A DNA stretch of 64,000 nucleotides, from sequence record MW748999.1. One strand, given 5' to 3'. The position numbers were made by a program, and so were the translations under genes. Origin of the DNA: Escherichia phage vB_EcoM_Skers. Each line of letters begins with the position of its first letter. Positions within the stretch are counted from its first letter, which is position 1. Positions 3,271-8,646 of the stretch are shown piece after piece. Below the pieces are notes generated by a model, which saw only the letters and a list, made by a program, of their open reading frames with translations, had not been told where the DNA came from and did no database searches.

Positions 3271-5070
3271 ATGCTAATGTTTAATAACTCCGTTAAATGG
3301 TTTACCGGAATTGTAGAAAACAGGGAAGACCCATTAATGCTGGGGCGTGTTCAGGTTAGGATTCATGGTATACATCCCTCGCTATCCGCACACGGTGACA
3401 TTCAAGGTCTTCCAACCGAAGATCTATTATGGATTACGCCAGTACAAGATATTACAAGCGCGGCGATCTCCGGTATAGGTCAAAGCCCTACTGGTATTGT
3501 TGAAGGTTCAATGGTATTTGGTTTGGCTTTAGATGAACGTTATTTAAACTGCGTTATTCTGGGTACTATTGCCGGACAATATACAGAGAAACCACTCACT
3601 ACAGAAGGTTTTTGCGACCCTTCTGGTGCATATCCTCGTTATATTGGTAATGATGTTAATATTCTTGCTCGTGGCGGTATTAACCCAGAAACCGGACAAA
3701 CAACAAAACCTGATAGTGTCTATATTCGAGATGAAAACACTGGAGTTGCAGTAAATCCAGACGACGAGCCATTAGACCAAATTCCGGTTGATGATAATCC
3801 TGATTTTACAATAGAAAAAATGCTGCGGGGCGATGAGGGGTATCGCGAGAAATGGTATCTTGATTCAGAAGGATATCCGACAATAGGCATCGGTCATTTG
3901 ATCATTTATAAGAAAACCAGTGATCTTGGTATTATCAATAATGAACTTTCTAAGCTGGTAGGGCGTGAAGTTACAAACGGAAGACTTACAGCCGAAGAAG
4001 TTAGTAAAGTATTTGCTGACGATATAGAAAAGACTCGTCGTGATATGCGCAAACATCCACGAATTGCACCTGTCTATAATAAATGTAATGCCTCACGTCG
4101 TATGGCATTAGAAAATATGGCGTTTCAAATGGGTGTTGGTGGATTGGGTAAATTTAAGAATAGTCTTGCTGCGATGTTAGCGGAAGAATGGAAACAAGCC
4201 TATGATGGATTACGTCAATCTGTATGGGCTAATCAAACTCCAGGACGGTCAAGCCGTGTTTCTAAAATTATTTTAACTGGTAACTTAGAATCATATGGCG
4301 TAATTGCTCCAAAGAAAGAGGAATCAATTTCTGATGATCCGCGAGCACGTTTGAGAAATGCCCGTATTGCTGCCTATAAGACGCAGAGAGCAGAAGAAGA
4401 CCCAGAAGCACCGTTTACCCCACAAGACACACGAATCATGTTTAAAGAGCCTAAGAGTTCGTATTCTGCAAGGTATCCATATAACCATGTATACGAGTCA
4501 GAGAGCGGTCATATTATCGAGATTGATGATACTCCGTCTCATGAGCGATATCATCGTAAACATCCTTCGGGTACATTTGAAGAAACCAGACCGGACGGAA
4601 CGAGGGTAGAAAAGATCGAAGGTGATGATTATCTGATCGTTAAACAAGGCCGGAAAGTAAACGTTAAGGGTAATTTGCAAGTTGTTGTTGAAGGTGACGC
4701 GCAAGTTTATTATATGGGTAATGTGATACAAACCGTTGATGGTAACGTCACTGAATTTATTCGTGGTAATGTTAATCAGACCGTTGAAGGTACTGCTAAC
4801 ATGCATGTTGTAGGTGATGTTATCGCACAGCTTGACGCTAATTTGACGGCTAATGTCAAGGGTAATGCTGAATTAATGATCGAGGGTAACACTACCGAAA
4901 CAATTAAAGGTAACTATGATTTAACCGTTGAGGGTAATTTTAATATGACCGTCAATGGCACTAAATCAGATCAGGTTAATGGTGACTGGTCCCGTAATTG
5001 TGGTGCAAGCGTTAAAGATATTGCATCTGGTACAGTTAAAATTGATGGTAGCCGTATTGATCTTGGGTGA
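3271..5070 (+). CDS. 5: gp5 baseplate hub subunit / tail-associated lysozyme (cell-puncturing device)
   Basis: 599 aa; N-terminal OB domain; central T4-lysozyme-like segment (DEGYREKWYLDSEGYPTIGIGHLI); C-terminal V-x-G-N octapeptide beta-helix repeats. Confidence 0.9.
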   Translation: MLMFNNSVKWFTGIVENREDPLMLGRVQVRIHGIHPSLSAHGDIQGLPTEDLLWITPVQDITSAAISGIGQSPTGIVEGSMVFGLALDERYLNCVILGTIAGQYTEKPLTTEGFCDPSGAYPRYIGNDVNILARGGINPETGQTTKPDSVYIRDENTGVAVNPDDEPLDQIPVDDNPDFTIEKMLRGDEGYREKWYLDSEGYPTIGIGHLIIYKKTSDLGIINNELSKLVGREVTNGRLTAEEVSKVFADDIEKTRRDMRKHPRIAPVYNKCNASRRMALENMAFQMGVGGLGKFKNSLAAMLAEEWKQAYDGLRQSVWANQTPGRSSRVSKIILTGNLESYGVIAPKKEESISDDPRARLRNARIAAYKTQRAEEDPEAPFTPQDTRIMFKEPKSSYSARYPYNHVYESESGHIIEIDDTPSHERYHRKHPSGTFEETRPDGTRVEKIEGDDYLIVKQGRKVNVKGNLQVVVEGDAQVYYMGNVIQTVDGNVTEFIRGNVNQTVEGTANMHVVGDVIAQLDANLTANVKGNAELMIEGNTTETIKGNYDLTVEGNFNMTVNGTKSDQVNGDWSRNCGASVKDIASGTVKIDGSRIDLG

Positions 5071-5078
5071 GGTAACTA

Positions 5079-5645
5079 ATGGTTGAAATTCTTCCGATGA
5101 GTTCAAAATTGGAGGATATCAGCGAGCGAGAAATCTTTGAGGTGGTGTTCTCTTATAAAGCAACGCCACCGGATGCAAATACCACATACACGATTAAAGA
5201 GTTTAAGATAAGCGAGTATCGCCCTAATAAGGGCGTTACCGTTGAAGAAACTAAAATATCTGGTGAGTATAGGGATAGTTTTTCGCTTGGCGCGGATTCT
5301 CTTAAATATATAACGAAAGATAGAATTAAAAAATCTGCCGGAAGTTTTGATGATTTACCAGATCCAACTACCGCAGATCTATATTATTTTAACGCTCCTA
5401 CACGTCTACAGGAGGTTTATACTTATAAAGTCACCCTAACCTATATCCAATCTGTTTCAGAGTCTTCTGGTGGTTCTGGTGAAGGAAATAGTGGTGGTTC
5501 CAATATCCGAGAGGGTGCTGGTGAAACTAATCCGCCTCCGGTAGTAACCGCACACACAATAGAGAAAGTTTATACTCAAACCGTTTTTGGAAATTGGGAT
5601 GTGTGGAGTAAACAGTTAAGAGATTATGTACATAGGGGTGTTTAA
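5079..5645 (+). CDS. gp5.1-like protein (by position)
   Basis: 188 aa ORF directly after gene 5; Gly/Ser-rich segment; no motif recognised. Confidence 0.45.
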   Translation: MVEILPMSSKLEDISEREIFEVVFSYKATPPDANTTYTIKEFKISEYRPNKGVTVEETKISGEYRDSFSLGADSLKYITKDRIKKSAGSFDDLPDPTTADLYYFNAPTRLQEVYTYKVTLTYIQSVSESSGGSGEGNSGGSNIREGAGETNPPPVVTAHTIEKVYTQTVFGNWDVWSKQLRDYVHRGV

Positions 5646-6452
5646 TGGCTGGCGGGTGTCGATGCCCCGCCGTCATAAATAGTTATATAATGATTTAATA
5701 TGAGGTGTTTTATGATTAAAGTGCATGACGATTTCAAAGAACTTTATAATGTATGCTCTGAACGTTTTTATTATGATGAAACGAGCGGAACAATTAGACG
5801 AAAATATGATTGTAAGAGCAATCATTATAAAGCGGGTGATGTAGTAGGATATAAAAGAAAACAAAAAAGAACAAATAGTGAAGATGATGTGTTCTATCTG
5901 TTTACTAAGATTGATGGAGTTTCTTATTCAATTCAACAAATTGTCTTCTTGCTTACCGAAGGGTATATACCCAATTGCATCGATCACATTAACAGAGACA
6001 CACTAGATAATCACCGTGAAAATCTTCGTGATGCATCGCGAAGCGGAAATGCTCGCAATAAATGCAAGGTATATAAAAATGGTTTCGCCTCTTCCGATTA
6101 CATTGGTGTGTCTAAGCGGGGTTCTGGATTTAGGTGTCGTATTAGAATAGACCATGTTATTGCATATGATGAAACGTTCGAAAATGAAACATCTGCTGCA
6201 TATGCATATAACGTAGAATGTATAAAATTAGGTGTCAGTGAATATACCAACTTTAATAAATTTGAAGACGAAGAATCTGTTAGGAAACTTTACGAAAAAG
6301 AGAAAGAAAATAAAGAGTTTCAAGAATATTGGAAGGGAACACATAAACAGGGTAAACGATGGGGTGCTAAAGTTAAGAGTGTGCGTTTGGGTACATTCGA
6401 AACAAGGGAAGAAGCTAGACTAGCTATAATTCGCTACAAAGAGGGGTTTTGA
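5646..6452 (+). mobile_element. free-standing homing-endonuclease insertion (hairpin plus HNH-AP2 endonuclease gene) between genes 5.1 and 5.4
   Basis: HNH endonuclease gene sits between two conserved baseplate genes, preceded by GGCGGG...CCCGCC hairpin and its own SD. Confidence 0.5.
5712..6452 (+). CDS. HNH homing endonuclease with AP2-type DNA-binding domains
   Basis: ORF track 5700..6452; start moved to second ATG, which has a GAGGTG SD; HNH motif [27 protein letters not shown]; two AP2-like segments ([15 protein letters not shown] and [19 protein letters not shown]). Confidence 0.8.
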
Positions 6453-6745
6453 TGGCTGGTTTATCATATGACAAAGCAAAAACTACTGGACATGGTAATT
6501 ACGGTCCGACAATAATTAATGCAACTCAATCTAAGGTATTTGTTGAGGGTATCCCTGTATTAGTCGAAGGAGACCCAATTACACCACATACAAAAACAAC
6601 AAAGCCTTATGATACACACGGGGGAACTACGGTCGCCAGTACCCCGAAAGTATTTGTTACCGGAAAGAAAGCAATTCAAATGGCAGATCGTATTAGCTGT
6701 GGCGATACCGTCGCTATGGCATCACCGAAGGTATTCATAAAATGA
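6449..6745 (+). CDS. 5.4: gp5.4 PAAR-repeat spike-tip protein
   Basis: 98 aa; PAAR-like repeats ([18 protein letters not shown] ... KVFVTGKK ... SPKVFIK); located between gene 5 region and gene 6. Confidence 0.8.
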
Positions 6746-8646
6746 CAAAGCAAAAGATTACACAAATTCCTGATATTTTTAATGCTGCTACATTCGATGA
6801 AATTAAAAGCGCATTAACAGACTGGATGAGAAACCAGGAAGAATTTAAAGATTTTGATTTTAATGGTGCTGGTATTAACGTATTGATGGACTTGCTCGCA
6901 TATAACACTCTGTATATTCAGCAATTCGCCAACGCCGCTCTATATGAATCTTTTATCAGAACGGCAATTAAGCGTAGTTCAGTTGTTCAAGCCGCGCAAG
7001 ATTTAGGATATTTGCCAGCAAGTAAAACTAGTGCATCGACTACAATTATGTTGCACGTATCCCATCCGCGAAATCCGGCAAGTATTCGAATCCCACGAGG
7101 AACTAAATTTATTGCAAGTGTGGATCGCCAGACGTCTTACCCGTTTGTGACTACAGAAGACGTTGTGAGTGTTTTAGGTTCAAATGGTTTATATACGCCT
7201 ATGCTTAAAGTCGCACAAGGTCGTATTGTTCGTACAGAAATGTTATTTGATCCGAAGAAACAAATTCTGATCCGTGATCCTGATATTGACCGCGCTCAGG
7301 TTAAATTGTGGGTAGATGGTGCTGAATGGAAAGACTGGACGCGAGAAAGCATTGTTAATGCAACTGGCGCTAGTAATATTTTCTATATGCGTGAAACCGT
7401 AGACGGCCATACAGAAATCTTCTTTGGTGAAGGTGAATCAACTTTATCTGCTGCTGGTGGGGCGCTGGAAGCAAATTATATTGGTGGGCTTAAGCCGTCA
7501 ACTGGTGCTAATATTGTTATCGAATATATCAGCACGAAGGGCGCGGAAGCAAACGGTTCAGTTAATTTTACATATGCGGATACCCTTGCATCTATCTCTA
7601 TTGTTAAAATTATTGAGAATCCGACAAATGATCGTGATTATGTCGGCGCAGATGGTGGTGGTGATCCTGAATCAATCGAACGTATCCGTGAACTTGCTCC
7701 GGTAATGCGTGAATCTCAGCGTCGTTGTGTTACTGCTTCCGACTATGAGGCTTTTGTGTCTAGCCGGTTTGGTAGTATTGTTCAGGCGGTACAATGTTTC
7801 ACCGACCGAGAAAAACCGGGTTATGCTTTTGTTGCGGTTAAGCCTAAATCTGGCTTGCGCTTGACAACTGTTCAAAAAGAAGATATGCGGGATTATCTGG
7901 CAAAATATAATCTTGCCCCTATCACTCCGAGCATCATTGACCCTAACTATCTGTATATTAAACAGAATATTAAAGTTTCCTATTCAATCAATGACTTGTC
8001 AGAATCAGAGCAGTGGTTGCGCGGTGCGGTTATTGATCAGATTGATGCATATTATACCGACGAAGTGGAAATTTTTAACCAGACCTTTAGTAAGTCTAAA
8101 ATGCTTGCGCGTATTGACAAAGCTGATGTATCTGTGATAGGTTCTAGTGCAGAAATCGAGATGGTGCGAGAGATCGACAACTTCTATAAAGCACCGATGG
8201 CTGGAATCAAGTTTTTAAACCAGTATAAGAGCGGAATCAAGTCTAGTTCGTTCAACTTCGAAAAGGACGGTAAACAATACCCGATCCATTATGTAAGTAC
8301 AGAAATGAAAAAAGAATCCGGTTTAGCTAAATTGCTGGTTGGACCTTTCCCTGTTGGTTCTGCAATCGCTTTACCGCACTATTCCGGCACTGATTTTGAT
8401 AAAGAGGTTATCGACGGTGCGGACCTATACTTTGAGGTTGGAGAGGTTCAGCATTATGAAGACCTTATTTCATGGGATCTGGGTAAACTGAATATCAATA
8501 GCGATCGCTTTACTGGTTCATATATTGAGTTGACAGCTAAACCGATTGCTGATAACATTTTTACTAAAGACGGTTCTTTGATCGTGTTTGAAAACGATCT
8601 CCGTCCTCAGTACACAACTATTAGTCTGGAGGCAATTGCTCAATGA
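6742..8646 (+). CDS. 6: gp6 baseplate wedge subunit
   Basis: 634 aa, size and position as T4 gp6; start overlaps gp5.4 stop. Confidence 0.85.

Follow-up and report, generated by a model that had tools for sequence, protein, structure and literature searches.

A putative HNH-AP2 homing endonuclease gene between genes 5.1 and 5.4 of a Krischvirus

The putative endonuclease gene and its product

The window, i.e. the whole stretch of 64,000 nucleotides from sequence record MW748999.1 that was analysed, derives from a Krischvirus (RB49-like, T4-type, Straboviridae). Between the positions 3271 and 8646 it carries the genes 5, 5.1, an extra open reading frame, 5.4 and 6, all on the plus strand. The extra frame, named HEG-A here, codes for a putative endonuclease; it has the same orientation as the late baseplate operon and lies inside it.

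3271-5070, plus strand: gene 5, hub and lysozyme
5079-5645, plus strand: gene 5.1, 188 aa, the conserved upstream neighbour of the endonuclease gene
5645-5676, plus strand: GC-rich stem-loop directly after the 5.1 stop codon, with a GGCGGG..CCCGCC core and 13 pairs in the predicted fold
5645-5698, plus strand: mini-ORF of 17 codons (MAGGCRCPAVINSYIMI, then a stop codon), read from the sequence and kept in all copies
5674-5681, plus strand: late-promoter candidate CATAAATA, matching the T4-type late promoter TATAAATA at 7 of 8 positions
5702-5707, plus strand: Shine-Dalgarno sequence GAGGTG, 4 nt 5' of the HEG-A start codon
5712-6452, plus strand: endonuclease gene HEG-A, 246 aa plus TGA, identical (100%) to the protein cluster P0001
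6452-6745, plus strand: gene 5.4, PAAR spike-tip protein of 97 aa, the conserved downstream neighbour of the endonuclease gene
6742-8646, plus strand: gene 6

Gene 5.1 was recognised by phrog_1168 (E 5e-53) and, on identical contigs, by PF26906 (Phage_T4_Y07E), and it is annotated as 5.1 in RB49 and Phi1. Gene 5.4 matched the Pfam PAAR_motif (E 2e-10) and phrog_281. HEG-A is read from the ATG at 5712 to the TGA at 6450-6452, and its stop codon shares the final A with the ATG of 5.4 (TGATG). An in-frame ATG at 5700, which would give a protein of 250 aa, was rejected as the start; it has no Shine-Dalgarno sequence and is not the start annotated in the relatives.

The stem-loop folded with a free energy of -18.4 kcal/mol and a z of -3.4, and none of 200 shuffled sequences folded as well. 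When the wider region of 101 nt was folded, the result was unremarkable (z -0.71), and the significance is confined to the 40-nt hairpin itself. The hairpin was unchanged in 9 of the 10 copies of HEG-A described below, with a single base differing in phage Whisky. Its GGCGGG/CCCGCC inverted repeat is unusual for DNA with 36% GC. An intrinsic terminator at this place was rejected, as the terminator scan made no call and a T-run is absent. The original prediction had been made for a 246-aa protein with its own Shine-Dalgarno sequence, preceded by a GC hairpin and inserted between the baseplate genes 5.1 and 5.4. The intact frame with GAGGTG 4 nt before its ATG, the stable fold at 5645-5676 and the Pfam and PHROG identities of both flanking genes all agree with this.

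The mini-ORF opens at a relic of the old 5.4 start codon, whose ATG is overlapped by the TAA of gene 5.1 (5643-5645), crosses the hairpin and ends 14 nt short of the HEG-A start. It may serve as a translational relay, and a coupled translation chain running from 5.1 over this leader and the endonuclease to 5.4 is possible. A promoter scan found no sigma-70 promoter upstream of HEG-A. The candidate CATAAATA overlaps the 3' foot of the hairpin. Exact TATAAATA sites occurred 9 times in the window, 8 of them on the plus strand, where 5.8 were expected; an enrichment above chance was not found. Since the exact sites are not enriched in the window, the 7/8 match is weak evidence and CATAAATA is a weak candidate for a late promoter. 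One exact site, at 2665, is located upstream of the gene-53 homologue.

The protein was then analysed with domain profiles and a structure model. Pfam HNH_3 (PF13392) matched the residues 75-115 with 32.2 bits (cutoff 24.8, E 8.1e-8), and phrog_99, 'HNH endonuclease', matched the residues 13-244 (E 2.7e-39). The AlphaFold2 model is confident (pLDDT 93.1, pTM 0.82) and comprises an N-terminal beta-rich domain, the HNH core, a strand-helix unit at 133-172, a helix at 187-207 and a second unit at 210-243. Both units consist of three strands and a helix.

5712-5966, plus strand: N-terminal beta-rich domain, residues 1-85, of the type found in I-HmuI-like enzymes
5967-6065, plus strand: HNH_3 catalytic core, residues 86-118
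6093-6236, plus strand: first AP2-fold domain, residues 128-175, matching the AP2 domains of homologues in each column of the alignment
6270-6332, plus strand: long linker helix between the AP2 domains, residues 187-207, from the AlphaFold2 model
6333-6449, plus strand: second, short AP2-fold domain, residues 208-246, three strands and a helix

The HNH motif is the H-N-N variant that is also present in I-HmuI, and D91, H92, N104 and N113 align with D74, H75, N87 and N96 of that enzyme. These I-HmuI residues are reportedly the general base pair, the motif asparagine and the metal ligand, as described by Shen et al. in 2004. In a family alignment of 32 sequences, i.e. the HEG-A protein and 31 of its shorter relatives, the residues D91, H92, N104, L105, R106, N113 and N116 were invariant. 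The profile of this alignment matched I-HmuI (PDB 1u3e, E 5.8e-9) and also the plant AP2/ERF structures WRI1 (7e-22), TEM1 (9e-14), ERF096 (2e-9) and AtERF1 (2e-7). WRI1 and TEM1 were found by Foldseek as well.

The first AP2 domain is divergent, with F140 in place of the usual tryptophan and D153-E154 in place of the usual Leu-Gly, and the Pfam AP2 profile (PF00847) gave no match to it. The second domain scored 15.9 bits within the whole protein and 20.9 bits alone (E 4.6e-4), against a cutoff of 33.3. The AP2 fold is therefore found twice in the protein, while the Pfam gathering score is reached by neither domain. The HNH motif that had been claimed was confirmed by the HNH_3 score and the catalytic D-H...N...N residues, and the two claimed AP2 segments hold by fold and by family alignment, but not by the Pfam AP2 cutoff. 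At position 75, HEG-A has a glutamine where the family has a nearly invariant histidine (at least 90% conserved). Given Gln75 and the divergent first AP2 domain, the activity of HEG-A may be altered or reduced.

Most of the short family members have one AP2 domain, as opposed to two in HEG-A; the layout with two was also seen in the clusters P0075, P0108, P0127 and P0003. When 1.84 billion representatives were scanned exhaustively with HMMER, 14,794 relatives were collected at E<=1e-3, whereas a word-indexed protein search had returned just 6, and it is by exhaustive search that the family becomes visible. Among the matches listed, the identity to HEG-A was 50% or less. Because its own cluster alone reached E<=1e-30 in the HMMER scan, HEG-A is an isolated lineage of a very large family. 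Within the 64-kb window, tblastn found no paralogue of HEG-A.

The insertion junction and the recoded start of gene 5.4

The occurrence of HEG-A in related phages was analysed with a 3-kb query around the gene, which matched 60 phage records at 95-99% identity. The whole query was present in six GenBank records representing five phages (G2494, Whisky, W115, JEP8 and GEC-3S, the last one twice), and about 45 Krischvirus GenBank records matched the query minus exactly 807 bp. Four assembled contigs encoding the identical protein also have HEG-A between 5.1 and 5.4 in a gene run from 5 to 6, and two of them, of about 55 kb, show gp53 upstream and gp7 downstream as well. All ten copies, from the six records and the four contigs, occupy the same 5.1/5.4 site. 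The gene is rare, being carried by 5 of about 55 sequenced Krischviruses, and carriers and insert-free phages are 97-99% identical around the site. Even a single ICTV species, Krischvirus gec3s, is polymorphic: GEC-3S and JEP8 carry HEG-A, the site is empty in Makalu_002, and another endonuclease gene is present in Makalu_003.

In the insert-free phages RB49, Phi1, kvi, ECD7 and others, the genes 5.1 and 5.4 overlap as TAATG. Since these empty genomes have no spacer between 5.1 and 5.4, HEG-A entered a stop/start overlap. The junctions are marked by a direct repeat.

5645-5652, plus strand: left direct repeat ATGGCTGG, 8 nt identical to the first 8 nt of gene 5.4, at the left junction
6452-6459, plus strand: right direct repeat ATGGCTGG, the functional start of gene 5.4

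The empty junction of RB49 reads ...GTTTAATGGCTGGATTATCC, and its comparison with the carriers gave an indel of exactly 807 bp. In the carriers, the left junction is TAATGGCTGG followed by CGGG and the right one is TGATGGCTGG followed by TTTATC; the register of the junction is ambiguous within the 8-nt repeat. The last codons of HEG-A (GAG GGG TTT TGA) rebuild a purine run resembling a Shine-Dalgarno sequence (AGAGGGG) together with the TGATG overlap. Gene 5.1 is unchanged in the carriers and gene 5.4 has its full length; judged from the sequence, the neighbouring genes keep their expression signals across the insertion. The GC content of the insert is 35.7%, compared to 40.7-41.2% in the flanks.

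The interval that had originally been predicted, 5646-6452, is exactly the 807 bp that are missing from the insert-free relatives. The proposed comparison of the junction in relatives showed a precise presence or absence of this segment, with about 45 empty records versus ten carriers, and an insert-free allele, whose absence from all relatives would have spoken against the prediction, is thus present in about 45 records. The statement that an intergenic site had been invaded holds for the mobile insert but not for the site, which in insert-free phages is a TAATG overlap with no spacer.

Adjacent to the insertion, and just outside the predicted interval, the start of gene 5.4 differs between carriers and empty genomes, and no other feature of the locus is as informative.

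6460-6512, plus strand: recoded block, nt 9-61 of gene 5.4, with 16 substitutions in 14 codons against every empty genome

In twelve of these codons the changes are silent, and the other two lead to P18G and V21I. When the first 79 nt of 5.4 were compared with 58 matching records, 8 were 100% identical, 50 were at most 79.7% identical and none lay between. The eight identical records are the HEG-A carriers plus phage KFS-EC. If changes accumulated at the local background level of divergence (2.3%), 16 of them within 53 nt would have a Poisson probability of about 5e-13. 3' of nt 61 the carriers and the empty genomes are virtually identical again. The recoded block is strictly linked to HEG-A. 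Private markers common to the carriers were found neither beyond nt 61 of 5.4 on the right nor further out on the left. A dimorphic cluster of 7 substitutions, 30-39 nt left of the junction, was rejected as a footprint of the endonuclease gene, as it is unlinked to HEG-A and both of its states occur among carriers and among empty genomes.

The block is probably a nuclease-resistant version of the target that travels with HEG-A. Alternatively, it could be the flank of a donor from a more divergent phage that was brought in by co-conversion, and not a selected immunity; the divergent Krischvirus phiS has about a third of the variant bases. A remnant of a donor flank that had been trimmed by repeated homing would also imply that these bases must be kept. 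As either reading of the block predicts it, a recognition or cleavage site would be expected within the first ~60 nt of gene 5.4 in the empty phages. Searching for a donor lineage with the first 79 nt of 5.4 yielded only Krischvirus records. The block gave no match in exact-pattern scans of IMG/VR and of JGI metagenome contigs; the control scan with the empty-type allele detected only 2 IMG/VR contigs, which means that these collections barely sample the genus.

The polarity of the event could also be reversed, with HEG-A ancestral to Krischvirus and the TAATG overlap generated by repeated precise deletions between the ATGGCTGG repeats, for which the 8-nt direct repeats would be suited. A deletion would leave the recoded block behind, but none of the 50 empty-type records carries it, and the insert has a foreign GC content. 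In addition, the nearest homologue among the matches listed from 1.84 billion representatives has less than 50% identity, and other T4-type genera have other endonuclease genes, or none, at this place. We regard loss from an ancestral carrier as hardly credible.

Proposed homing, selection and possible competition at the 5.1/5.4 interval

The most probable explanation is that HEG-A is a free-standing HNH-AP2 homing endonuclease gene resident in a Krischvirus genome, to which we assign a probability of about 0.8. The sequence features expected of such an element were all found, i.e. the nuclease core, the dedicated DNA-binding domains, the presence/absence polymorphism, the lower GC content, the expression signals kept by the neighbouring genes, the linked substitutions and the intact copies with their synonymous excess, and they support the homing endonuclease of the original prediction.

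By this mechanism, the enzyme would be translated from the late baseplate transcript when a mixed infection has reached its late stage. Its recognition site at the 5.1/5.4 junction of phages lacking the insert would be long and asymmetric, most probably reaching into the first ~60 nt of 5.4. The enzyme would nick or cut this site; in single-HNH relatives, I-HmuI among them, one strand is nicked. With the carrier genome as template, the cassette would then be copied by the T4-type recombination-dependent repair. Two features would protect the carrier itself: its site is interrupted by the insert, and nearly all silent positions in nt 9-61 of its 5.4 are recoded. The recoded block would travel with HEG-A. 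As the sequence shows, the cassette brings along its own hairpin, Shine-Dalgarno sequence and reading frame, and the rebuilt TGATG would keep 5.4 translationally coupled.

Selection on the gene was analysed in the ten copies, which are all intact. Among 23 variable sites, 14 are synonymous and 9 nonsynonymous, with 148 synonymous and 590 nonsynonymous sites available. Because of this synonymous excess (14:9 versus an expected 1:4, binomial P 2e-5), the HEG-A protein is under purifying selection. Among the carriers, HEG-A diverges by 0.4-1.2%, about as much as the flanks do, and for this reason the present distribution could largely reflect an old acquisition followed by ordinary recombination rather than ongoing homing.

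These data bear on the possibility that HEG-A is an inactive relic, which once homed and is now a non-functional passenger, kept since a precise deletion that spares the 5.1/5.4 coupling is rare. The exchange of His75 to Gln at a position conserved to at least 90%, the degenerate first AP2 domain, the scores of both AP2 domains below the Pfam cutoff and the rarity of the gene (5 of about 55 sequenced Krischviruses) would fit a relic. Such a passenger is improbable, as the reading frame is intact in 10 of 10 copies with a synonymous excess at P 2e-5, D91, H92, N104 and N113 are intact and the model is confidently folded.

Purifying selection would also be expected if the HNH-AP2 protein had been domesticated and now served the phage, either as a regulator of transcription or translation that binds the inverted repeat 5' of its own gene or as a weapon that degrades co-infecting relatives. 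AP2 domains are sequence-specific DNA binders, which in plants bind GC-rich boxes (GCC-box), and the family profile of HEG-A matches plant AP2 structures in the PDB. The cassette has the GGCGGG/CCCGCC inverted repeat in DNA of 36% GC, and autorepression by an endonuclease has a precedent in I-TevI. A sporadic distribution within one species is, however, unlike that of a beneficial gene, and the strictly linked recoded block is explained by immunity to a nuclease and not by regulation. The role as a weapon is not really distinct from homing, as competition between phages by marker exclusion is part of the biology of homing endonuclease genes. Taken together, domestication is very improbable, and we retain the homing endonuclease as the preferred explanation.

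A different endonuclease gene was found at the same interval in KFS-EC, MIZ4, MIZ5, Makalu_003, G37-3 and G5211. This gene, HEG-B, encodes 179 aa with HNH_3 and a single AP2 domain. It resembles HEG-A in its HNH_3 plus AP2 class, in its neighbourhood and in 30% identity over the first 190 residues, but it has one AP2 domain, lacks the hairpin and is not accompanied by a recoding of 5.4. Its site is about 17 nt to the left of that of HEG-A, within the last codons of 5.1, where it replaces the C-terminus HRGV by RRSEG. Gene 5.4 is of the empty type in the HEG-B carriers MIZ4, Makalu_003 and G5211. In KFS-EC, HEG-B is followed by GGGGTTTTGATGG, which corresponds to the last 13 nt of HEG-A with its stop codon, now without function; the recoded block of 5.4 comes next. 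The simplest reading of this scar is that KFS-EC descends from a HEG-A carrier in which HEG-B replaced HEG-A. Whisky has, in addition to HEG-A, a third HNH-AP2 frame (184 aa, a paralogue) between 5.4 and 6, and T4 has the GIY-YIG gene segC between 5.1 and 5.3/5.4. From these genomes, the 5.1/5.4 interval is seen as a recurrent target of unrelated homing endonuclease genes, because HEG-A, HEG-B and T4 segC occupy the same interval.

It is tempting to go further and to propose that the two endonuclease genes compete at the junction, with the 53-nt block as a portable immunity cassette and KFS-EC as a case of HEG-B displacing HEG-A. We hold this as a tentative and rather doubtful extension; if true, KFS-EC would be a HEG-B carrier that is also immune to HEG-A. 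As a further idea, the GGCGGG/CCCGCC inverted repeat at the 5' end of the cassette might be an operator read by the tandem AP2 domains of HEG-A itself.

As a discovery HEG-A matters little, since its correct label is in GenBank and the class has been described since 2004. The locus is of value as a clean natural test system for the targets of HNH-AP2 enzymes. Comparisons between carrier and empty genomes, of which dozens are nearly identical, can confine the target to about 100 bp, and the nearly purely silent, linked recoding of 5.4 predicts which bases confer immunity. With two HNH-AP2 genes within 17 nt, the KFS-EC scar and the GIY-YIG gene of T4, the locus is suited to study how selfish nucleases compete for, and converge on, one landing site in an essential late operon. 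GEC-3S, W115, JEP8 and KFS-EC are candidates for therapy or biocontrol, and such elements drive marker exclusion in cocktails.

Comparison with known endonuclease systems

The HNH-AP2 class was reportedly defined in 2004 by Magnani et al. and by Wuitschick et al. Like HEG-A, its members have HNH_3 followed by one or more AP2 domains, are free-standing and occur sporadically in T4-related phages. We know of no HNH-AP2 member with a mapped cleavage site. For RB49-type phages, free-standing homing endonuclease genes of this class have been described (PMC1524935, PMC2993671), and RB49 ORF040c as well as the HNH-AP2 genes of JSE, RB43 and RB16 have been tabulated (PMC2993671).

HEG-A itself corresponds to ORF137 of GEC-3S (BN201_0137, 'Putative HNH homing endonuclease'), which has 246 aa and the same position between 5.1 and 5.4. 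Further copies are W115_207, G2494_00136, JEP8_257 and HFGIMCCB_00133 of Whisky. The GenBank copies are 98-99% identical to HEG-A at the nucleotide level, with only 3-10 nucleotide differences, and the records of GEC-3S and W115 carry the annotation 'HNH homing endonuclease'. ORF137 was published as one of six genes that are unique to GEC-3S within the RB49 group, encoding a putative HNH endonuclease (PMC3528706). That description of 2012 stops at the BLAST label, a homologue of T5 P-TflX (PMC3528706), and mentions neither the AP2 domains nor the junction and the recoded block.

I-HmuI of the Bacillus phage SPO1 (PDB 1u3e) has a similar fold, with just 13% identity in the structural alignment. 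It differs from HEG-A in being encoded within an intron and in having helical modules, not AP2 domains, for DNA binding at its C-terminus. T4 segC shares with HEG-A the lifestyle of a free-standing homing endonuclease gene and the interval between 5.1 and 5.4, but it is a GIY-YIG gene of unrelated sequence and is followed by 5.3, not being fused to the start of 5.4. SegF, SegG and MobE are inserted between conserved genes and expressed with their neighbours; their target is in the adjacent gene of relatives that lack the endonuclease gene, and flanking markers are co-converted. In the literature searched, no paper was found on how the junction is built, on the recoded block or on the scar in KFS-EC. 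In conclusion, both HEG-A and the class to which it belongs were known before, and the junction, the recoded block and the scar are refinements.

Possible gene replacement at the KFS-EC junction

Phage KFS-EC carries HEG-B, the other HNH-AP2 gene (junction at L002 2180-2215, to be compared with window 6438-6470). Directly 3' of HEG-B, the gene of the window is represented by its final 13 nt (GGGGTTTTGATGG), and the recoded block of gene 5.4 comes next. This remnant is a scar, and it suggests that the window's gene was replaced by HEG-B.

The left junction

Gene 5.1 contains a second dense dimorphism at 5607-5616 in the window, which places it 30-39 nt to the left of where the insert begins. 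The two variants, GAGTAAACAGTT vs GGCGCAGCAACT, differ by 7 changes in 10 nt and encode WSKQL and WAQQL, respectively. The endonuclease gene and this dimorphism segregate independently, and the window's variant was found in all four HEG-B genomes examined.

At the junction itself, the relic 5.4 start codon opens a conserved mini-ORF of 17 codons (window 5645-5698), which spans the GC-rich hairpin and ends 14 nt 5' of the endonuclease start. The mini-ORF possibly acts as a translational relay or attenuator. The hairpin has the following arms in the window:

5651-5656, GGCGGG, first arm
5666-5671, CCCGCC, second arm

Both arms are similar to GCC-box type sequences, which are read by AP2 domains. 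It is pure speculation that they could serve as an operator for the tandem AP2 domains of the enzyme itself.

Neighbouring genes and related phages

In the window, 5.4 and gene 6 overlap in an ATGA (ATG 6742, TGA 6743-6745). In Whisky, a third ORF with HNH_3 and AP2 domains (184 aa, L003 2751-3305) is inserted between these two genes, and the window's gene is also present alongside it. The GenBank entries of the relatives contain annotation errors that have spread via similarity: many entries for Krischvirus phages, among them JEP8, kvi and PHB13, wrongly give gp5.4, the PAAR spike-tip protein, the name 'phospholipase', and gp6 is wrongly named a gp9-like connector in the JEP8 record.

In T4, the interval from 5.1 to 5.4 holds segC, a GIY-YIG homing endonuclease gene (L022 4697-5119). 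Therefore, unrelated nuclease families have converged on this junction.
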